The notes under the pieces: generated by a model
What the model saw: the letters and a program-made list of their open reading frames with translations, nothing else
Database searches by the model: none
Told to the model about the DNA's origin: nothing
NCBI RefSeq assembly: GCF_003991905.1
Contig: NZ_RSCL01000015.1
Coordinates: forward strand, 1-64,000
Length of the DNA stretch: 64,000 nt
Reading direction: 5' to 3'
From: Dulcicalothrix desertica PCC 7102
GTDB lineage: Bacteria > Cyanobacteriota > Cyanobacteriia > Cyanobacteriales > Nostocaceae
Part shown: positions 4,671 to 64,000 of the stretch, in pieces
How the letters are laid out: each line of letters begins with the position of its first letter
Numbering within the stretch: position 1 is the stretch's first letter
Position numbers and translations under genes: made by a program

Positions 4671-4822
4671 GAGATGCTTCGTACCTCAGCATGACAGGAG
4701 GAGATGCTTCGTACCTCAGTATCACAGGAGATGCTTCGTACCTCAGTATCACAGGAGATGCTTCGTACCTCAGTATCACAGGAGATGCTTCGTACCTCAG
4801 TATCACAGAGGATGCTTTGTTT
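4671..4822. repeat. Tandem repeat, 27-bp unit GGAGATGCTTCGTACCTCAGTATCACA, about 5.5 copies
   Basis: Read directly; it generates the artefactual repetitive ORFs at 4606-4873 on both strands. Confidence 0.9.
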
Positions 4823-4979
4823 TTTAGCATGATGTGGTTGGCGCCTCACAAATTTTTGTGTTACAGTGTGTAGTAAGGCAGTAATACAAAGCGATGCTAT
4901 GGTTTGGGTTCTGTATGCCCAACTGGTGCGCTCTTAAGATTTAATTGTGCGTATGCCGCATTATTGTAGCTGTCTTATC

Positions 4980-5052
4980 GTGTGATTAGCTCAGTTGGCA
5001 GAGCATCCGAAGAATCGGCTGGACGAAGGTTCGAGTCCTTTATCATACACCA
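4980..5052 (+). tRNA. tRNA-like gene with defective anticodon arm (possible tRNA pseudogene), CCA encoded
   Basis: Perfect 7-bp acceptor stem GTGTGAT/ATCATAC, D-arm GCTCAGTTGGCAGAGC, T-arm GAAGGTTCGAGTCCTTT, ACCA 3' end. Only 20 nt lie between the D and T arms, with a 4-bp stem and 4-nt loop (CCGA-AGAA-TCGG), so no normal anticodon loop. Confidence 0.4.
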
Positions 5053-5125
5053 AAAAAGTTAGCTCATTAGGTAGAGCGGTCGGCGTTTAACCGATTGGTA
5101 GTAGGTTCGATTCCTACACTTTTAC
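5053..5125 (+). tRNA. tRNA-like gene abutting the previous one; anticodon loop CGTTTAA (TTT, Lys-like) but atypical (G33, A1:A72 mismatch, no CCA)
   Basis: D-arm GCTCATTAGGTAGAGC, anticodon stem GTCGG/CCGAT, T-arm GTAGGTTCGATTCCTAC; acceptor AAAAAGT/ACTTTTA has a first-pair mismatch. Confidence 0.35.
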
Positions 5126-5547
5126 CAACCCTGTCCGGGTCAAAAGACACTACTTTGAGGAAGTAGCTCCTACAAAAATGGAAAAAGGGAGAAATCCCAA
5201 AACGGTTCGATTCCGTTATTTTACAAACTCTGTGGTGCAGGTGCGCGTTTTTGCTTGTCATTCGTGGTGAGCTTTAATGCAACAGTGAAGGCGCCTGTGC
5301 GTTTACATTTTATCTGACTTGAGTATGCCCTTCATTTGTAACATCTAAGTTCTTTACAGAATTTGGAATTAGCAAATTGAACGGTATATGTGAGCGTTGT
5401 TTTCTTAACTGCCGAAAGGTACTTGAGTGACAATAATCTTAATCCAGTAGATAAATATGTATTTGTCCGCACCTTAACTGTAGACACTTGCACTTGCGGA
5501 GTTTATAATTATTTTTCATGTAGTATATATGCTACAAGTTATAAATT

Positions 5548-7128
5548 ATGGCTTTATTTAATTTTGACTGGGTAAAAATACCCAAATTATCTATCAATAT
5601 CACTATGTGGAAAACTTTTTATATCAAACCTAATGAGCTTGGAATTTTGTATCATCGCAGCGATTTTAAGAAAATTTTGCAGCCTGGTACTTATACTTAT
5701 TTTGGTAGTCACTGGCAAGTTAAAGCATATGACCTGAATGTGCCAGAAGCTAAGATTGAAAACTTAGAATTGTTGCTGCGAAACCACGGTTCTGAGTTGG
5801 AAGATTATCTATTAATTGTGCGAACTGCATTTAACCAAACTGCTTTGGTTCGTTTGGGTCAAAACTGGTTGAGCGTTGCACCAAATCAACTACGTGCGTT
5901 TTGGCGTGGTTTTATTGAAGTGGAAGCACATGTCTTTAATTTGGAGGAAAGCTTAGAGTTACCATCTGAGTTTGTTCAACAAACGCGCAGTCTGGTTTTG
6001 GGTGGAATTAGAAAGTTCCAAATTTCTGAGTCTGAGATTGGTTTATTGTATGTGCAAAATAACTTTGTTCGACCTTTAGAACCAGGTGAGTATGCATTTT
6101 GGACTTTTGATAGAGATGTGGCTGTTCGTACTCTTAGTCGAATTATCCCAAATCCAGATTTTCCTCTTGAAGATGTTTTGATTCAAAGACATCCTGATTT
6201 TGTTGCTGCTTATTGTGAGGTCGTGCAACTGCTGAGTACTGAAGTCGCTATTGTACGATATCAAGGTAAAGCTATTTCTATACTGGCGCCATCTAGTCGC
6301 AAGCTGTTTTGGCAAGGTGTGGAAGTTGAAGTTATTGATATCAGCACAGATGCTAAGTTATCACCTCGCTTGGTAGCTGAGTTAAACTCTGGTTTACCTG
6401 AAGTAACTTATCTTGCTTGCAAGAGTTTGCATTTATGCGAGGTTAAGGCACAGCACATTGGTCTACTATATATTAACCAAGAGTTCAAGAACGAACTTCA
6501 ACCGGGTGTCCACGCTTGGTGGATATTTGGACGGTCTTTCCAAACTGAAGTTTTTGACTTGCGTCAACAAGCAATGGAAGTATCGGGTCAAGATATCCTT
6601 TCTAAAGATAAAGTGCCTTTGCGGTTAAACTTGACGGCTGGTTATCGTATTCTAGACCCATTACGAGCAAAAAATGCTTTGTCAGATATAAGTAATTTCT
6701 TGTACAAAGAATTACAGTTTGCTTTACGCGGGGCTGTTGGTGAAAAGACTCTTGATGCTTTGCTCGAAGATAAAGGCGCCGTTGATACGAGTATTTCTGA
6801 GTACATTCGCGCGAAGACAGCAGAGTACGGAATTGAAGTTGCTTCTGTGGGAGTTAAGGATATTATTTTACCTGGTGAGATTAAGACTATTTTGAGTAAG
6901 GTAGTCGAAGCTGAAAAAGCTGCTCAAGCTAACGTAGTACGGCGCCGTGAAGAAACTGCCGCAACTCGTAGTATGTTAAATACCGCTAAAGTGATGGAAG
7001 ATAATCCTGTTGCTTTACGATTAAAGGAACTTGAAGTGCTAGAACGAATTGCCGAGAAAATTGAGAAAATTCAAGTAAACGGTAGCTTAGACAGCATTTT
7101 AACCGAGTTAATTAGCATTAATAGATAG
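5548..7128 (+). CDS. SPFH/band-7 (stomatin/prohibitin-like) domain protein with N-terminal triplicated repeat
   Basis: 526 aa; C-terminal SPFH region (GYRILDP...VVEAEKAAQANVVRRREETAAT...LRLKELEVLERIAE). Three N-terminal copies of about 35 aa (IGLLYxxxxFxxxLxPGxYxxW). Confidence 0.7.
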   Translation: MALFNFDWVKIPKLSINITMWKTFYIKPNELGILYHRSDFKKILQPGTYTYFGSHWQVKAYDLNVPEAKIENLELLLRNHGSELEDYLLIVRTAFNQTALVRLGQNWLSVAPNQLRAFWRGFIEVEAHVFNLEESLELPSEFVQQTRSLVLGGIRKFQISESEIGLLYVQNNFVRPLEPGEYAFWTFDRDVAVRTLSRIIPNPDFPLEDVLIQRHPDFVAAYCEVVQLLSTEVAIVRYQGKAISILAPSSRKLFWQGVEVEVIDISTDAKLSPRLVAELNSGLPEVTYLACKSLHLCEVKAQHIGLLYINQEFKNELQPGVHAWWIFGRSFQTEVFDLRQQAMEVSGQDILSKDKVPLRLNLTAGYRILDPLRAKNALSDISNFLYKELQFALRGAVGEKTLDALLEDKGAVDTSISEYIRAKTAEYGIEVASVGVKDIILPGEIKTILSKVVEAEKAAQANVVRRREETAATRSMLNTAKVMEDNPVALRLKELEVLERIAEKIEKIQVNGSLDSILTELISINR

Positions 7129-56930: not shown

Positions 56931-57060
56931 CAAGGACAATCGCTGATGACCTGCGACCAAACCCGAAGCTTTTTCTTCTTAGCTTTTTACCTTTGCCAAC
57001 CTTTCAATAAAAATACCAACGTATACCATTATCGTACCATGAGATGTCTTTTACAAGCAT

Positions 57061-57205
57061 TAGTCAATAGTTTGTTTCTAGATAATAGTCAATAGTTAAT
57101 CATGAGTAATAGTCAATAGTAGTGCCTTGATTCCCAGGTAATAGTTAAGGGTTAATTATGAGTAACAGTCAATAGTTTATTACTATATAATAGTCAAGAG
57201 TTATT
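57061..57205. repeat. Iteron-like direct repeats, five copies of about TAATAGTCAATAGTT
   Basis: TAGTCAATAGTTTG / AATAGTCAATAGTTAATC / TAATAGTCAATAGTAGTG / TAACAGTCAATAGTTTAT / TAATAGTCAAGAGTTAT. Confidence 0.7.
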
Positions 57206-57395
57206 TTTTTAGATAAAAGCAATGTTTGTGTGTAAACAAAGTCCGCGCATAAAAACCGCACATACATTGTCGCAGACAAACCCATTGATTAACTGTTAAT
57301 TATTTTTTATGGCGCAATACTCAAAAGTATCATTGTTTATACTGAAAAACTGATAGTATCGCGTATAACTATAAAGTCTTTCAGTAGAAAACTTT

Positions 57396-57881
57396 ATGAG
57401 CTTAACCCAAGATACAGAAATTAGAGGTTTGTCAATCGCTGGATGCTACGCTTTATTAATCGCTGAAGGAACCAAAACTATTGAGTTACGGGTATGGCAA
57501 GAAAAAACTTACAGAGGTTTGGTAATGCTGCACTGTAGCAGTGGTTCCGGGTATGATTTTTCGTATGAGCATTGGGAAATATCAAAGGATGAATGTCCTA
57601 AAAGTTCAATCATTGGTGTAGCTACGCTGGTTGATTGCATAAAATACGACACTGCTAAAAAATGGGATGCTGACCGAGAGAAGTTTCAATGGGATATTTC
57701 CTACAAACAAGCTTTAGAAGAATATCAAGGTAAACCAATCTACGGTCATGTTTTTGAAAATCCCTGTGTTTTTGACCCTCCAATATTAAATATTAAAGGA
57801 ACATTTCGTTATTGGGAACCAAAAACAGACCCACAGATTGAAGCGGCAGAACAAGTAAAGTTTTTGATTAGCAATATTTAA
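57396..57881 (+). CDS. ASCH (PUA-like) domain protein
   Basis: 161 aa; N-terminal KTIELRVW beta-barrel motif typical of the ASCH fold; tentative. Confidence 0.4.
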   Translation: MSLTQDTEIRGLSIAGCYALLIAEGTKTIELRVWQEKTYRGLVMLHCSSGSGYDFSYEHWEISKDECPKSSIIGVATLVDCIKYDTAKKWDADREKFQWDISYKQALEEYQGKPIYGHVFENPCVFDPPILNIKGTFRYWEPKTDPQIEAAEQVKFLISNI

Positions 57882-57884
57882 CCG

Positions 57885-58193
57885 TTAGTTTTCTCCGGGT
57901 TTTATCCTATCAATGCCTCGATGATAACCGCGATTATAACCTTGACGATAAACCTTTAAAATTTCTTCGCTACAATCTTTTGGCAAGTCCACAGAAACAT
58001 CTTCCTCGAAATGTTCACCGCAATAATCGCTACTTACATACTGCGATAATAAATCTGGGTTACTAAAGATTCTACTAGCGAAGTCACCTGGTAGATGTCG
58101 TACTTGTGCGTAAATCCATTTTTTAAAACTGTGTTCTTTTACTAGATTATTCACTATTTGTTGCAGGTTTTCCATTGTTCTTACCCTGGTCAA
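57885..58193 (-). CDS. Hypothetical protein (102 aa)
   Basis: ORF only. Confidence 0.3.
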   Translation of the reverse strand: MTRVRTMENLQQIVNNLVKEHSFKKWIYAQVRHLPGDFASRIFSNPDLLSQYVSSDYCGEHFEEDVSVDLPKDCSEEILKVYRQGYNRGYHRGIDRIKPGEN

Positions 58194-58444
58194 ATTTAAA
58201 AAACAATACCCTCGAAGAATATTATTCTACGACAAAACCAAAAAAAACATAAGCCCAGAGTTACAGTCGCAGCAAAGCTGCTTCTGGGGCATACCTGCCG
58301 CAGTCGTAGATATCCCACGAAAAAACCATGAGAATTTCTCATGGAATTTCATTGGTTTCTACGAAACTCCGCTAATTTATCACCAAATTCCACGAAGTTT
58401 CACAGACCTATCATCGATATCCCATTGGGCTTTTATCGAGGCTT

Positions 58445-58801
58445 TTAGCGATTGTTTTTGGTATAAGCCAAGATAACAGCTAAAGCTTCATCCTCGGTTT
58501 CGTAACTGGAACGCCAATCAAGGAAAAGGAGCGCTGGATGTTTCTTTTGGTGACTTCGATAGCGAGTTGGTCGTTGAATAGGCGTATGAGTTACTTCCCA
58601 GATTTGTCCTGCGTAGGGAAAAAGTTCACCGATTTGTGGCACAAAGTTAAAGCTAAGAAGGTGAACGCCAACGCACTTTTGAACAATATCCTGGGGTGTT
58701 TTATTGCGAACATCTTCGGGTAATCTGAGGACGCACCCAATCGTTATCCGCTGTTGGTTTAAAACAACCTTTTCATAAACCTTTCCTAGATTCTCAAGCA
58801 T
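58445..58801 (-). CDS. Hypothetical protein (118 aa)
   Basis: ORF only; last gene of the minus-strand array. Confidence 0.35.
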   Translation of the reverse strand: MLENLGKVYEKVVLNQQRITIGCVLRLPEDVRNKTPQDIVQKCVGVHLLSFNFVPQIGELFPYAGQIWEVTHTPIQRPTRYRSHQKKHPALLFLDWRSSYETEDEALAVILAYTKNNR

Positions 58802-58870
58802 TGATAGACTCCTTAGTTAATATTTATTAATTTAACAGAAAAGCATTTTGTAAAAGCTAAAATGCCTATT

Positions 58871-59031
58871 GCCCCGCCATCGCCCCAGTTTTTATCTATT
58901 ATTTAATATTTTTGGGGCGGAACAGTGATTTTTCTGGGGCGGAACCTTCGGGCGGACTGGGGCGGAGCCTGTAATGCTTATCGCCCCGTTGTACCCCTGT
59001 CTGTTTTTGAGTTTTCGCCCCAGGTAAAAGC
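58871..59031. promoter_or_regulatory. Cluster of 7-8 GGGGCGG (or complement CGCCCC) motifs in 160 bp of otherwise AT-rich DNA, including direct repeats TGGGGCGGAAC x2, GGGGCGGAGC, GGGCGGACTG
   Basis: Read directly; lies between two co-oriented minus-strand genes. Confidence 0.5.
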
Positions 59032-59037
59032 AAGGTC

Positions 59038-60879
59038 TTATCCTTTGTACGAAATTGTGTAAGTATCAGCGGATATTTCTATTAAGAAGTTGGTCAAGGA
59101 AAGTAGCTTAAGTATTTCTCGAACATCCTGTACTGATAATCTATTGCCATCATTAGTAAAATCCATAAAGTACCGACTCTTGCGAATATGTTCCACGGTA
59201 ACTTCCGATAATTCTTTTTGAATTAAATAACCTTTGACTGCATCTGCGAGTTTAATAATGTAATCAAAATGGCTGGCTTCATGGTTAGGTTGAGAGCTTG
59301 GTTTAAGAATTTCTTCGGTAAATTCCTCATCATGTAATATGTCAGAGGAAGTTTCGCTAATAACAGGTTCGTTGGTGGTTTTATTGGATTCCCAAAGCTT
59401 TCTATAATTTTGATATTCAGCGTAGACAGAACTAGGGACAACTCCCAAAGTCCAATTATTATAGTTACCAAGCACTATTGGTTCATCGGTGGCAACGTCT
59501 ATTGAATCAAGCTGAGATTTCAACAATGAGCGTTTACCATTGTCGCTAATCAAGAAATTATTTCCTAGGGCTAGTTCGATAAATTCTCTCTTGCCATTCT
59601 TCGCTAAGAATATCATATCACCCACAGAACGAGCAGAGGCACTGCCCATGAAAGGTAAATCTTGGACGTTTGATGAATGGCTACTGACAAAAACAGCGCT
59701 ATTATATTCTCGACCCACAAGCCAATATTCGTTAAGTAAAGTCATCAAGTGTTCGTACAGCGGTAAACAATCAAAAGACGCTTCGCTGGCTTCTTTCTTG
59801 CTGTCAAACACTGCATAATTTTCGGGGTTAATGAATTTACCTTTAGTACCAGTCTCAAGGTATTTTTGCATTGTTAGAAAATCATCCAAGAATAATCTGC
59901 TGATATTTCCTGTGTGACTTGTTGAACCATCAATGAATTTAATGATTTCAACAGCAGCGGTAACAGCACCAGATTTAACACTAATACATTTGTCAGATAC
60001 TCCGCGAAAAGCTTCTATATCGCTTTTCTTGACTACTACAGCTAGGCTTTTAAACTTTGACCCATATCGTTGTTTTAAAGCACCCCAAGCTGTACCAAGA
60101 AACGTTGTTTTACCGCTTCCTGGTGCAGCTAATATTACACAACCTCCAAGGACAGAATCATCGGCACGGTTAACTAGTGAATCTCTAATAGAGATTGCAT
60201 TAGCGAATAAATCAGTGTTGCATACCGGATTATTAGCGTTGAAACTATCTTTAGGACTATTTGCAGTAGATGTTAATATATTTGTTTTTTGAGCATCACC
60301 CACTGTTTGCTTCCCTTGAATTAAATCTAGTATTTGCAGCGGTTTTAATCGTAATGCACTAGCACAGTAAGTAAGTGCTGCATCCCAAGAATCCACACTT
60401 CGACCAATCAATTTATTTTCAAAAAGTTGTCCTGTAGATGCTTCATATAAACTTTCTAAGAAAATGTCAGTGCTGGTGCAATGCCATAACCCAGCCCAAT
60501 TATCGAGTGGTGCCTTGGATAAAGCAATCTCATATTTTTTCAATATTTCAATTACAGGTGTCTCAAGTTTATTCTTAAAAACAGAACCACCGACAGTTGC
60601 CAAAGTAAAAACACCAAGGATAGGTATCGCCACTGGTGTAATCATCAAACTAGCTGTTGCAAAAATTGCTGATGCAATCGATGTCCAACTCGTGAAATTT
60701 TTTGCGTTTTCTGCATCATTCTCGCGTTCGCTGATATTTCTACAAAGCTCACCTAAAAACTTTCTCTTTGATTCAAGCGAATCAACATCGTTAAATTGTA
60801 GCCCAGATTTAAATAATAGTTCAAAAGAATTTTTTCCTGATTCAGTCAGTGCCAGCGTTTTTACTGTTAAATTAGTCAT
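59038..60879 (-). CDS. P-loop NTPase with RecA/DnaB-like (AAA_25/RepA-like) core and N-terminal membrane-anchoring segment
   Basis: 613 aa; Walker A ILAAPGSGKTTFLG, Walker B RLFLDDF, downstream AVFVSSHSS (DnaB H3-like); hydrophobic stretch at residues 60-100. Confidence 0.45.
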   Translation of the reverse strand: MTNLTVKTLALTESGKNSFELLFKSGLQFNDVDSLESKRKFLGELCRNISERENDAENAKNFTSWTSIASAIFATASLMITPVAIPILGVFTLATVGGSVFKNKLETPVIEILKKYEIALSKAPLDNWAGLWHCTSTDIFLESLYEASTGQLFENKLIGRSVDSWDAALTYCASALRLKPLQILDLIQGKQTVGDAQKTNILTSTANSPKDSFNANNPVCNTDLFANAISIRDSLVNRADDSVLGGCVILAAPGSGKTTFLGTAWGALKQRYGSKFKSLAVVVKKSDIEAFRGVSDKCISVKSGAVTAAVEIIKFIDGSTSHTGNISRLFLDDFLTMQKYLETGTKGKFINPENYAVFDSKKEASEASFDCLPLYEHLMTLLNEYWLVGREYNSAVFVSSHSSNVQDLPFMGSASARSVGDMIFLAKNGKREFIELALGNNFLISDNGKRSLLKSQLDSIDVATDEPIVLGNYNNWTLGVVPSSVYAEYQNYRKLWESNKTTNEPVISETSSDILHDEEFTEEILKPSSQPNHEASHFDYIIKLADAVKGYLIQKELSEVTVEHIRKSRYFMDFTNDGNRLSVQDVREILKLLSLTNFLIEISADTYTISYKG

Positions 60880-60979
60880 ATGTTTATTTTTTTATAATTT
60901 CAAAGGTAGATATTTACGAATCTACCTTGATTTTTTATCTCAATGTATGATATATTAGGAATAAGCAACAGAATAAAGC

Positions 60980-61717
60980 CTAGAGCTTATATTTTTGTTC
61001 GGGTTCTTCGGAATCGCCTTCAATATTACCAAGCAAAGATATTGTGCTGGCAACAAACTTTAAAGCAAACTCAGGAGCAAACAAAGAAAGTACTCCAAGT
61101 ATTAAACCAAAAGGGTTAAAGTTACCGAGCAAAGTATAGGTAATCATCAGTGTCGTTTCGACAATGTAACTGATTCTACGCGCTGCTTTAAGGTTTTTGT
61201 GGTCATGAGACAACCATTGAGTTAAGCGCTGTTTTACAGAAACATCAGCGTCGGTTTCAAGGTTAGGATTCACGTTATTTTTTGAGTAATATTCCGCAAA
61301 TTGTCTGCTGATTTTCCACATCTCAGAACTAAGCTGAAAAGCATTCACGCAAACCCCGAAGAATAAACCAATAAAACCTGCCGAATAACCACCAATGGAA
61401 GATAACCCAAATAATCTACCGAACCATAACCCTAGTGCGTACCATTGACCAGTAGTCACGATTAAAACCACGCCAAATATAATGATTGACAGCAAACATG
61501 GCGTTGATGGTGAGCTAATAAATTTAATTGCGATAGAAAACAAGAAGACAGCAGTGTGTAAGCATTCGTGAAGAATCTCTGATAAAAGCGTTAGTAGTTT
61601 TCGGAGAATTCTAAATATTTTCTTGACAATTGCTGTAACTCCATCCCAGAATGTTTTTTTGGTTTTCTTTGCTGTATCACTTGATGAATTAGAACCAGGT
61701 TTATAATTTTGTTGCAT
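60980..61717 (-). CDS. Hypothetical integral membrane protein (245 aa, about 5 TM)
   Basis: ATG overlaps the stop of the upstream gene (TAATG). Confidence 0.4.
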   Translation of the reverse strand: MQQNYKPGSNSSSDTAKKTKKTFWDGVTAIVKKIFRILRKLLTLLSEILHECLHTAVFLFSIAIKFISSPSTPCLLSIIIFGVVLIVTTGQWYALGLWFGRLFGLSSIGGYSAGFIGLFFGVCVNAFQLSSEMWKISRQFAEYYSKNNVNPNLETDADVSVKQRLTQWLSHDHKNLKAARRISYIVETTLMITYTLLGNFNPFGLILGVLSLFAPEFALKFVASTISLLGNIEGDSEEPEQKYKL

Positions 61718-62220
61718 TAGTTGTCACCTTTCATTGATAATTGATTTTGAACTTCTTTTATACTGAAAATCCGTGTAACAGTTACCTCGCCATTCGAGTA
61801 AACAACATTAAGGAATTGTTTTGTTTTTGGTACGTAGACGCAACTTGTAGGAATCTTCCCGGTTTCTGTACCTTCGACTGCGATAACATCGTTTATTTTC
61901 AGCGGATAATTAGCTTTATTCTGCCAGCAGGTATCGCTCTTAACATGTTTCGCGATATTAACCAGCGCTCTCTGCCGTGAACTTATCGCTGTTTGCGAAG
62001 AAACATTCGCTGATATTTGCTGGGTCATTCCATAACTAAATATTGAGAAATTACCTAGCACTCCCACCAGAATAATTGTATTGAGATGTTTTTTTAAAGT
62101 TTGAATCATTGCGCTTATTCTTCGGTTAATTGATGGATTATTTTTTACATGTTCAAGAAACATCTGTGAACTGGTTACAGCCCCGCCAACAAATCCAACT
62201 TCGCTAGCGGCTGTAACCAT
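61717..62220 (-). CDS. Hypothetical membrane-anchored protein (167 aa)
   Basis: One TM helix (IILVGVLGNFSIFSY); translationally coupled to the next gene. Confidence 0.4.
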   Translation of the reverse strand: MVTAASEVGFVGGAVTSSQMFLEHVKNNPSINRRISAMIQTLKKHLNTIILVGVLGNFSIFSYGMTQQISANVSSQTAISSRQRALVNIAKHVKSDTCWQNKANYPLKINDVIAVEGTETGKIPTSCVYVPKTKQFLNVVYSNGEVTVTRIFSIKEVQNQLSMKGDN

Positions 62221-62231
62221 ATCTATAGACT

Positions 62232-62750
62232 TTAAGCAATGAGCTTTTTCTTGAACACTTGCATAAAAACCGCGAGTTCATCCTTGGCTGCAACTCCATC
62301 AGCTTGTAGTTTTACATCGTCGCCTAACAGCCCAGATACTTCTTGCAAAATGCCGCGTAATGTTTCACGCTCGTTTCTGTGTTCTTGCTGGAAATGTGCC
62401 GCTAGTTCTTTTTTCTTCTGATTGTGTATATGGATTATTGCTTGGTTTTCTACTTCAGCGATTGTTTCGTGGTACTGTAACCGCTCGACAATACTAAGCT
62501 TGATTTGATGCTCTAACACCTCGCTAGCAGTCAATACAATAGCCTTCTGATGTTCCAATGGCATATCTACTACATGTTCTATTGCAGTGGCTCCAATGCG
62601 CTTTGCATTAACTAGTTTGGTGATAATCTCGAACTCCGCATCAGTTAATTCTTTGACTGAATCCCAGTGATTGTTGGTTTCGGATAATATCATGCGGATT
62701 TCTTCAATAGATAACCCTGTTTCTGTCGAGACTTGATTAATGTTTTTCAT
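62232..62750 (-). CDS. Hypothetical helical protein (172 aa)
   Basis: ORF, acidic, coiled-coil-like. Confidence 0.35.
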   Translation of the reverse strand: MKNINQVSTETGLSIEEIRMILSETNNHWDSVKELTDAEFEIITKLVNAKRIGATAIEHVVDMPLEHQKAIVLTASEVLEHQIKLSIVERLQYHETIAEVENQAIIHIHNQKKKELAAHFQQEHRNERETLRGILQEVSGLLGDDVKLQADGVAAKDELAVFMQVFKKKLIA

Positions 62751-62786
62751 TTTGTAAAATCCTTTTTAGTAAATTTATTGAATGTT

Positions 62787-63107
62787 TTAGTGTTTGAACC
62801 CGGTTTGCTTCCGGTAAGCATACTTTGAAAAATCCGCTGGACTAGCTTTGATTTTGTCAACGATGAATTTCTTGTTCTTAAAAACTTTGAAGGCATCGTT
62901 AATTTGAATTAAAACCCAACATTGGTAGCGAGTCAGCGGTAAACGTTCTGTGTGAGTTTCGCGGTAATCCTCAATTAATATTTTTGCCATCCGCTGATAA
63001 CGATGCAAGGTAGCTGCACCCACGTTTAATATTTGTGATAAATCTTTACCGAGCGTAAACTCTGGTAAACTTGTAATGTCAAACTGTAATAAATCTGTTG
63101 ATAACAC
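62787..63107 (-). CDS. Putative HTH DNA-binding protein (Xis/MerR-like), first gene of the minus-strand array
   Basis: 106 aa; GKDLSQILNVGAATLHRYQRMA resembles an HTH; directly downstream of the operator-like repeats. Confidence 0.35.
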   Translation of the reverse strand: MLSTDLLQFDITSLPEFTLGKDLSQILNVGAATLHRYQRMAKILIEDYRETHTERLPLTRYQCWVLIQINDAFKVFKNKKFIVDKIKASPADFSKYAYRKQTGFKH

Positions 63108-63134
63108 CTGTGTTTTTTCTCCTGTGATTGTTTG

Positions 63135-63200
63135 ATGGAAGTTCGTGGAAGTTCGTGAAAGTTCGTGAGATATTCTCTTGGTTTATCCGTGAGATATTTA
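63135..63200. promoter_or_regulatory. Operator-like direct repeats GGAAGTTCGTG x3 and CGTGAGATATT x2
   Basis: Read directly, immediately upstream of the HTH gene start (63107). Confidence 0.5.
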
Positions 63201-63291
63201 ACAGTAAAAAAAACGAGATTTGATAATCGGTAATTGTTTGAAATGCGTCTCTGTTGTTTTTACGCTTCTGTTATTAGTTTACCACATTTAA

Positions 63292-63520
63292 GATGCAATG
63301 TGCAACTTAATAGAGATTTTTTTTGGCTAAAACCTTTGTTATTTAAAGGTTTTAGCAGTGATGCAATCAGCACATCAAAACTAAGTTTTTATTTAGAATA
63401 TAGCCATAGTAAAGGTTTCACCGATTAACCCACTGGGAAAATGCTAAGATTAATGCACTGATGCAAACTGCACATCAAAACTAAGGTTTACTTTTTTAGC
63501 TGATGCACAATGCTCACTTT
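63292..63520. promoter_or_regulatory. Divergent control region with two full copies of TGATGCAAnCnGCACATCAAAACTAAG plus two half-sites (GATGCAATGTGCAAC, TGATGCACAATGCTCAC)
   Basis: Read directly between the minus-strand array and the plus-strand RHH gene. Confidence 0.5.
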
Positions 63521-63760
63521 AAGGAAAACTATCTTGTAGATAAACCTATTAAAAATCTTATGTCTAATCAAAACACTGTTAAAAGAAGCACCATCAATAT
63601 ACCCACGAAAATCTACGGATTAATCCTTAGCCTATCCGCAAACCAAATTAGTTTTAGTTCCACAGTTGTCATGCTACTGACTGAAGCTCTAGAAGCCCGT
63701 GGTCTTATCGTTGATAAAATCGAACCAATCACTAAGGATGAACTTAAAGAAAAACCGTAA
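63503..63760 (+). CDS. Putative ribbon-helix-helix (CopG/Arc-like) DNA-binding protein
   Basis: KRSTINIPTKIYGLILSLSANQISFSSTVVMLLTEAL fits the beta-alpha-alpha RHH pattern; the start may be the internal Met (MSNQN). Confidence 0.35.
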   Translation: MHNAHFKENYLVDKPIKNLMSNQNTVKRSTINIPTKIYGLILSLSANQISFSSTVVMLLTEALEARGLIVDKIEPITKDELKEKP

Positions 63761-64000
63761 GCTTACTAAAAATGTTTATATATAAACAATAGCTGCGTAT
63801 TTACGGAGTTATTTTAGTATCTTTTTAGACATGTTTTCTCAAACCTTAATAGCTGCTTAGAATTTCGATACGGGGGGTTCCAAAACCCGTCCATAGCCCC
63901 CCTACTTTTTAAAGACTAATATAGTTGCTATGGACGGATTTTTTGCTTACTGTATAAGGCTTTCAGCGATTTAGCCCCTTGCAACGCTTGCAAGCTTTTT

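Follow-up and report, generated by a model that had tools for sequence, protein, structure and literature searches.

Transfer of double-stranded DNA (dsDNA) of the TraB type is considered to be particular to mycelial actinomycetes. The Tra/TraB/TraA proteins of the Streptomyces plasmids pSVH1, pIJ101, pJV1 and pWTY27 comprise ~600-700 aa and combine an N-terminal membrane segment with an FtsK-like motor and a C-terminal winged helix (WH). The clt loci are plasmid-specific, extend over ~150-200 bp, abut or overlap the 3' end of the tra gene and contain 7-9-bp direct and inverted repeats; small membrane proteins (Spd) are encoded alongside, and neither a relaxase nor a T4SS is involved. Tra of pIJ101, for instance, has 648 aa, with FtsK_SpoIIIE at residues 311-493 and a WH at residues 594-631, and is accompanied by spd membrane genes. 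TraA of pWTY27 (688 aa, two transmembrane segments) binds a clt that consists of 16 bp inside traA and the adjacent 159 bp and carries 7-bp direct repeats (TGACACC, CCCGCCC) as well as inverted ones (PMC3583192). TraB recognises 8-bp repeats via its C-terminal WH and resembles FtsK/SpoIIIE (PMC4447253).

Here, we analysed a 64-kb stretch of DNA of the cyanobacterium Dulcicalothrix desertica PCC 7102 (the whole 64,000 nucleotides are called the window) in which a repeat array directly follows the gene of a 613-aa P-loop ATPase, and compared it with related loci. The module resembles the Streptomyces systems in the size and layout of the ATPase (predicted N-terminal membrane segment, FtsK-like motor fold, C-terminal WH), in an array that lies at or abuts the 3' end of the gene and has its own motif in each locus, in small membrane proteins that are encoded alongside without relaxase or T4SS, and in hosts that are multicellular, filamentous bacteria. 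It differs in that no sequence homology to Streptomyces Tra was detectable: PF01580 matched neither the window protein nor 30 family members, even at E ≤ 1, in a search that recovered pIJ101 Tra as positive control at 9e-10, and an hhalign comparison of the family profile with pIJ101 Tra was null (probability 0.2). Further differences are a Walker B motif with DD rather than DE, the diderm host, and membrane partners that were unrelated to SpdA/SpdB in the searches run. The relation to Streptomyces Tra and clt is best described as an analogy in mechanism, not as sequence-level membership.

The repeat array behind the ATPase gene

The array lies within a 236-bp spacer (58802-59037) between two minus-strand genes, 3' of the 613-aa P-loop gene and 5' of a 118-aa gene. 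Its features are as follows.

58868 to 59021, no strand: whole array, eight 8-bp GGGGCGRW units, 52% GC, in the 236-bp spacer 58802-59037
58868 to 58875, minus: unit 1, GGGGCAAT, inverted, one mismatch; overlaps CCCCGCC at 58872
58879 to 58886, minus: unit 2, GGGGCGAT, inverted
58888 to 58912, no strand: AT-rich spacer of 25 bp with 8% GC, between inverted units 2 and 3
58914 to 58921, plus: unit 3, GGGGCGGA, aligned with a single TTCCGCCCC unit inside the arrays of loci L001 and L011
58936 to 58943, plus: unit 4, GGGGCGGA, direct
58949 to 58956, plus: unit 5, CGGGCGGA, direct, one-mismatch copy
58959 to 58966, plus: unit 6, GGGGCGGA, direct; read on the gene strand as TCCGCCCC
58980 to 58987, minus: unit 7, GGGGCGAT, inverted, within the 16-nt direct repeat AATGCTTATCGCCCCG
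59014 to 59021, minus: unit 8, GGGGCGAA, inverted with respect to the direct run; the first unit past the ATPase stop codon, 17 nt downstream

The eight units, which span 17-170 nt past the ATPase stop codon, comprise six GGGGCG sites and two one-mismatch copies, four of the units being direct and four inverted. The sequence-only reading had counted eight GGGGCG(G) sites or complements at this position, a number that is reached if the two one-mismatch copies are included; the CCCCGCC at 58872, which it had counted, is not a complement of GGGGCGG and qualifies only as a one-mismatch unit (GGGGCAAT). The direct repeats that it had reported were exact (TGGGGCGGAACAGTG at 58913, TGGGGCGGAACCTTC at 58935 and TGGGGCGGAGCCTG at 58958), and the 16-nt repeat around unit 7 has its second copy at 58861. 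The spacing, which had been called regular, turned out to be 22, 13 and 10 bp between direct units, i.e. roughly whole helical turns but not strictly regular. Likewise, the surrounding DNA had been described as below 35% GC, which holds for the non-coding flanks (24% in 58802-58868 and 8% in 58888-58912) but not for the coding flanks (35-40%), compared with 52% in the array itself.

Twelve GGGGCG sites were found on both strands of the window, and half of them lie inside 58881-59021 (141 bp). All three GGGGCGG sites of the 64 kb belong to the array, where they fall within one 53-bp stretch, and so do all four occurrences of GGGCGG/GGGCGGA in the window. When 12 sites were placed at random, none of 200,000 trials yielded at least 6 sites within 160 bp, and shuffling the 236-bp spacer 100,000 times never produced 6 sites (maximum 2). 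The degenerate motif GGGGCGRA with at most one mismatch matched 17 times in the window, 7 of them inside the cluster, against 31 matches expected; the rest of the window is, if anything, poor in the motif. The array was thereby confirmed as a non-random repeat cluster.

Since the P-loop gene lies on the minus strand and ends at 59038, the array is downstream of it and cannot hold the promoter of this gene, a possibility that the sequence-only reading had proposed to check. The array region contains neither an intrinsic terminator nor a sigma-70-like promoter on the minus strand, and Rfam gave no match there. Its RNA fold z-score was only -2.4, a value explained by the inverted units; reading the array as an RNA structure was rejected, because direct-repeat arrays of relatives such as L021 cannot form such hairpins.

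The ATPase, its cassette and its hosts

The genes next to the array and the parts of the ATPase, all on the minus strand, are listed below.

58445 to 58801, minus: 118-aa gene, downstream of the array; a homolog stands at the same place in locus L004
59038 to 60879, minus: gene of the 613-aa P-loop ATPase, with the array directly 3' and the stop codon TAA at 59038-40
59041 to 59283, minus: C-terminal WH, residues 533-613, pLDDT ~90; the variable part and candidate for specificity
59380 to 60222, minus: ATPase core, residues 220-500, with Walker A APGSGKTT (253-259) and Walker B RLFLDD (328-333)
60577 to 60687, minus: hydrophobic hairpin, residues 65-101, predicted membrane anchor, hydropathy peak 2.1
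60980 to 61717, minus: multi-pass membrane protein of 245 aa; homologs of 31-57% identity directly precede the ATPase gene in 10 other loci
61717 to 62220, minus: 167-aa protein, a conserved partner in the cassette; 10 loci have homologs

The 613-aa sequence matches a Dulcicalothrix desertica PCC 7102 protein annotated as hypothetical at 100% identity. Alignment, hydropathy and AlphaFold2 together give the order hydrophobic hairpin, ATPase core, disordered linker and C-terminal WH from the N- to the C-terminus. In the family alignment the two-helix hydrophobic hairpin is conserved in an otherwise variable N-terminus, the core is well conserved (Walker A APGxGKTT, Walker B RLFLDD and an SSHSSN strand) and the C-terminal ~90 residues are highly variable. 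Anchoring of the ATPase in the membrane via the hairpin is predicted from these sequences.

The AlphaFold2 model (mean pLDDT 77.5, ~90 in the core and in residues 533-613) shows an ASCE-type ATPase followed by a WH. In the fold comparison EccC came first, followed by HerA at 12.3, the STIV2 packaging ATPase at 12.2 and TrwB at 11.9; RecA-like proteins scored ~12 and AAA+/ORC ~10.4. EccC was also the top Foldseek match, in a list in which FtsK-like motors were not separated from ORC/Cdc6, RadA and Rho (E ~1e-3 to 1e-4). The modelled core probably adopts an FtsK/HerA-superfamily-like fold. Pfam, NCBIfam, PHROGs and PADLOC gave no match above threshold for the ATPase or its seven neighbours, and the sub-threshold P-loop matches among these eight proteins were to DO-GTPase1, UvrD and GajB; a PDB search by sequence found no match. 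Membership in the DO-GTPase family (PF19975) was rejected: the match covers the P-loop only and lies below the Pfam threshold, and the GAP1 partner, the defining feature of DO-GTPase systems (PMC7159879), is absent. A sister group that has only the N-terminal domain in common with the family was considered as a bridge to FtsK and was dropped as too weak, one member giving sub-threshold P-loop matches to DUF87, AAA_10 and FtsK_SpoIIIE.

In a collection of 5.8 billion proteins, 76 other relatives of the ATPase were found at E ≤ 1e-3, and all those with named hosts come from Nostocales (Calothrix, Rivularia, Richelia, Nostoc and Tolypothrix). A profile search of 1.84 billion representatives retrieved just 95 family proteins; the distant members with a named host come from Microcoleus and Nostoc, and a distant homolog is encoded on Fischerella plasmid5. 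As far as organisms are named, these searches suggest a small family confined to filamentous cyanobacteria. A scan of genome contigs with the single protein found no locus, the profile scan found eight loci, the metagenome scan only two, and the IMG/VR viral scan found no relatives.

In most loci the 167-aa and 245-aa proteins are encoded upstream of the ATPase, and the surroundings are those of mobile elements. A primase-helicase is found in L021 (Prim-Pol/D5) and in L015 (D5_N), an integrase in L021, in L015 (a tyrosine integrase) and on the complete 24.5-kb Fischerella plasmid5, and a resolvase, together with a DUF3987 protein, in L020; an actin-like ALP occurs in L021, an MreB-like protein in L020 and ParA on the Fischerella plasmid. 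Relaxase, VirB4 and VirD4 were absent from every annotated locus examined. No homologs of the relatives' integrases, replicases or ALPs were found within the 64-kb window, tblastn of four ALP/MreB-like proteins and one adaptor of relatives against the window gave no match, and megablast of 57000-64000 against plasmid DNA was equally negative. The copy in PCC 7102 could be a remnant or could continue past 64000. The literature searched gave no description of this cassette in cyanobacteria; the ATPase together with its private repeat array is a previously undescribed conserved module of filamentous-cyanobacterial mobile elements.

Arrays and winged helices in related loci

The DNA behind the ATPase stop codon was compared in 21 distinct loci from Nostocales, Microcoleus-type cyanobacteria and one complete plasmid. 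In 20 of them, copies of a short motif are densely clustered in both orientations, beginning 1-25 bp past the stop codon, the exception being a homolog of 25.6% identity on the Nostoc plasmid pNLP3, which has no obvious array. By repeated 7-mers, the 250 bp past the stop codon rank in the top 1% of locus windows in 14 of 18 loci and at 1.7% in L010; three arrays with units of 5-6 nt, present in 5-6 copies each, are not significant by this measure. Its place at the 3' end of the ATPase gene is the constant feature of the array. The gene beyond varies, being an ALP gene, the 118-aa gene or genes of 217, 127, 116 and 64 aa, and so does the distance to that gene (~60 to ~440 bp among loci).

The motif is nearly locus-specific: TCCGCCCC in the window, TCCAACA in Calothrix NIES-4101, GGTTCTACA in the closest relative (L011), and in further loci TCCGACAG, GTTGACA (10 copies), GTGACA, GGAAC, CGGAACA (13 copies), CACGGCA, TGCGGCA, GCGGTCAG, CGGCGCG and GGTGTAGAG. 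The array unit of L004 measures ~23 bp, the motif of Fischerella plasmid5 is GTGTGGC, and the L021 array consists almost wholly of direct repeats. Alignment of the four closest spacers revealed a common layout, with one or more inverted units, a spacer with ACAGGGG and then a run of direct units, within which whole sets of units have been replaced. The 8%-GC stretch of 25 bp in the window is not kept in the arrays of the relatives. In the arrays of L001 and L011, which are otherwise different, one TTCCGCCCC unit is conserved and aligns with the window unit at 58914-21; this unit may be what is left of an ancestral TCCGCCCC array, or a second, conserved factor may bind there.

The WH of the ATPase is the only DNA-binding domain that is linked to the array in every locus. 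Between the window protein and those of L011, L003 and L001 the core is 79-85% identical and the WH only 15-28%, which indicates a domain swap, and the motifs differ. The reverse combination is seen for P0102, a Microcoleus-type member with ~11 GGAAC copies in 175 bp of array, which is 26% identical overall to P0024 and has the 'IRKSRKW' WH and the GGAAC motif in common with it. Six loci share one WH type (…GKKGNNS…KFYLGEL… and …KYYLxEL…), five of them with NNNACA motifs and the sixth, L017, with GTCGA. Over 153 locus pairs, the similarity of motif spectra correlated with WH identity (Spearman 0.26, p 0.001), compared with a Spearman value of 0.15 (p 0.07) for core identity. The motif thus appears to follow the variable WH and not the ATPase core; the covariation, drawn from ~20 related loci, is support rather than proof, because the locus pairs are phylogenetically non-independent.

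A probable cognate site of the ATPase and the alternatives

Judged from the sequence comparisons above, the array probably serves the adjacent ATPase gene as its cognate cis-acting site on the DNA. That the module also works like Streptomyces Tra/TraB and clt, with transfer of dsDNA, is argued by analogy and is a tentative proposal, plausible but short of probable. For the two parts taken as one explanation, a cognate ATPase site used in TraB/clt-like transfer, we lean cautiously in favour.

In this proposal, the WH domains of a presumably ring-shaped ATPase oligomer would dock on the eight GGGGCGRW units, which would load the motor exclusively onto DNA of the element itself. The ATPase would act as a dsDNA translocase independent of relaxase and T4SS, and the two conserved membrane proteins encoded upstream would help to pump the element across cytoplasmic membranes. 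The likeliest route would be between neighbouring cells of one filament or from filament to filament, because every named host is a filamentous cyanobacterium. Integration, replication and partition are already covered in the related elements, which would leave DNA transfer as the function that a self-transmissible element still needs. Binding of the units by the WH, the oligomeric state, the membrane localisation and DNA transfer are in each case what we infer for this family.

KOPS sequences are dispersed and polar along the chromosome. The array motif, unlike KOPS/SRS of FtsK/SpoIIIE, occurs in one cluster and is rare elsewhere, and the ATPase gene belongs to a mobile element and is no housekeeping gene; because the motif is clustered and not dispersed, a description as FtsK/KOPS is excluded.

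The sequence-only reading had taken the array for an operator, an origin or a partition site bound by a multimeric protein, and not for a product of chance. A non-random, multi-copy array of the protein-binding type within a mobile element was indeed found, but each of the three roles is disfavoured by the comparative context, because the downstream gene varies and the relatives have separate primase-helicases and ALP/ParA.

Archaeal Orc1/Cdc6 proteins are ATPases with a C-terminal WH, encoded next to ORB inverted repeats that flank AT-rich DNA, and the present gene likewise stands next to inverted repeats that flank AT-rich DNA. The units could be iterons or ORB-like boxes of a replication origin, with the 8%-GC spacer as unwinding element and the ATPase as Orc1/Cdc6-like initiator. 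The repeats spaced at about whole helical turns, the AT-rich 25 bp bracketed by inverted units, the layout of gene beside site that is typical of initiators, and the appearance of ORC1/Cdc6 (AAA+ plus WH) in the Foldseek list at E 6e-4 all fit such a role. However, no neighbouring gene matched a Rep family and the relatives have separate Prim-Pol/D5 replicases, so that an origin is an unlikely reading that nevertheless keeps some plausibility.

FtsK/HerA-type motors also package viral genomes, as PRD1 P9 and STIV2 B204 do. The array might be the pac site of a virus-like or vesicle-borne element, whose packaging motor would be anchored by the small membrane proteins and would select the genome via WH and array. 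This would be compatible with the array as cognate site of the ATPase, but a capsid, portal or tail family was seen in none of the loci, PHROGs gave no match for the cassette, IMG/VR holds no relative, and the elements have plasmid partition systems (ALP or ParA); we regard packaging as unlikely.

The position of the array upstream of, and co-directional with, the 118-aa gene (units 1-2 lie ~70 bp from its ATG) would also suit an operator or promoter, at which a small regulator bound to the units controls this gene. Genes for an RHH protein (63503-63760, 85 aa) and an HTH protein (62787-63107, 106 aa) are present within the element, and both had been put forward as binders. They are, however, adjoined by other repeats (63136-63205 and 63358-63486), and in the relatives the array is not consistently accompanied by any regulator. 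With an array that is anchored to the ATPase stop codon, a downstream gene and a distance to it (~60-440 bp) that vary, and the lack of a sigma-70-like promoter on the minus strand, an operator is improbable.

The parC site of R1 is an array of repeats with a period of ~11 bp, bound cooperatively by ParR. A parC-like partition centromere, bound by the adaptor of an ALP/ParM or ParA system, is suggested by L001, L003 and L011, in which the array has a period of 11-12 bp and is followed by an ALP gene and then a small RHH-like protein; ALP genes occur in several of the related elements. Unlike parC, the array lies behind the ATPase gene and not the ALP gene, an ALP being absent from the window. 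The ALP/MreB-like gene of L020 and L021 is separated from the array, ~3-4 kb to the upstream side of the ATPase gene, ParA of Fischerella plasmid5 is ~5 kb from the array, and in L001, L003 and L011 a second, different set of repeats immediately precedes the ALP gene, all of which makes a centromere very improbable.

That the array is an artefact of chance or of a GC-rich patch has nothing in its favour beyond the shortness of the motif and can be dismissed, given the outcome of the shuffles and random placements and the equivalent arrays at the same place in 19 other loci.

Returning to the cognate ATPase site and its TraB/clt-like use, a wider picture can be offered as a speculative possibility: filamentous cyanobacteria would harbour a family of elements, integrative ones and plasmids, which travel as dsDNA by means of a self-encoded, membrane-anchored FtsK/HerA-like pump that reads a private clt-like array through its C-terminal WH. 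Such elements would provide a counterpart of TraB conjugation, either of independent origin or diverged to an extreme degree, and for the first time in a diderm phylum; their cell-to-cell spread would probably make use of the septa and the shared periplasm of the filament. To our knowledge, TraB-type transfer has no precedent in diderm bacteria, and we know of no native T4SS-independent conjugation system in cyanobacteria.

The ~20 natural pairs of protein and motif provide material on how a winged helix changes its specificity, and the cassette may supply orthogonal 'handles' with which DNA could be mobilised in genetic work on Nostoc and Anabaena. The MOB-suite label 'non-mobilizable', which is also given to pIJ101, would be blind to such elements, as it is to that plasmid. 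A Pfam-less cassette of two membrane proteins, a putatively membrane-anchored FtsK-like ATPase with WH and a private array recurs in plasmids and integrated elements and is a concrete candidate for T4SS-independent conjugation in cyanobacteria, which suggests a convergent link between the multicellular architecture of the filament and the spread of dsDNA.

Repeats beside regulator genes and tRNA genes of the window

Two sets of repeats lie beside the small regulator genes of the element:

63136-63205: tandem repeat, three copies of TGGAAGTTCG followed by two of CGTGAGATATT
63358-63385 and 63458-63486: direct repeat of ~28 bp in two copies (GATGCAAnCnGCACATCAAAACTAAG), 100 bp apart

The minus-strand gene for the 106-aa protein (62787-63107) has the tandem TGGAAGTTCG/CGTGAGATATT repeat on its upstream side, starting ~30 bp from the start codon, and both GATGCAAnCnGCACATCAAAACTAAG copies lie upstream of the 85-aa ribbon-helix-helix (RHH) gene (63503-63760). 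As an operator for the small regulators of the element, the tandem repeat at 63136-63205 is a likelier candidate than the GGGGCG array in the 3' flank of the ATPase gene, which the sequence-only reading had proposed as a regulator- or initiator-binding site.

A further tandem repeat immediately precedes a pair of tRNA genes that abut each other (region 4671-5126):

4671-4817: 27-bp tandem repeat, 5.3 copies
4980-5052: first tRNA gene, anticodon not assignable by ARAGORN
5053-5126: second tRNA gene, tRNA-Lys(UUU)

Sister group of the ATPase family and mobility typing

The sister group of the ATPase family (P0087-P0140) consists of ~600-aa proteins which have only the N-terminal ~230 residues, hairpin included, in common with the family and carry a different P-loop domain. 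One member gave sub-threshold matches to DUF87, AAA_10 and FtsK_SpoIIIE.

The cyanobacterial plasmids L022 (AP018303.1) and L023 (NZ_CP026695.1) are labeled 'non-mobilizable' by MOB-suite (via PLSDB), as is the Streptomyces plasmid pIJ101 (L025, NC_001387.1). In the literature pIJ101 is known to be conjugative, and because it receives the same label, the typing of L022 and L023 is uninformative about TraB-type transfer.

Repeat sets in loci of relatives

Loci of relatives with a homologous ATPase gene carry the following features:

L001 12028-12034 and L011 ~895-903 (aligned with window 58914-58921): single TTCCGCCCC unit
L001 12280-12420, L003 5200-5350 and L011 1170-1310: second repeat set (GGGTAA/GGGTGA, GGGCATAAAYGG)
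L006 about 6660-6780: second array, AGACAG units, 280-400 bp past the ATPase stop codon
L020 14661-19782: serine recombinase (Resolvase) and adjoining hydrogenase genes

The arrays of L001 (TCCAACA) and L011 (GGTTCTACA) are otherwise different, yet each retains one TTCCGCCCC unit, which falls in the same alignment column as the window unit at 58914-58921; this unit may be a relic, or it may represent a second site of binding. In L006, the AGACAG array is located downstream of the GGAAC array. The L020 element with its serine recombinase adjoins the genes for the small and large subunits of a NiFe-hydrogenase, an arrangement reminiscent of the hup genes of heterocyst-forming cyanobacteria that are interrupted by DNA elements.

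The second repeat set of L001, L003 and L011 is distinct from the first and lies directly upstream of the gene for the actin-like partition protein (ALP). These GGGTAA/GGGTGA and GGGCATAAAYGG repeats are probably the real parC-type centromere of the three elements.
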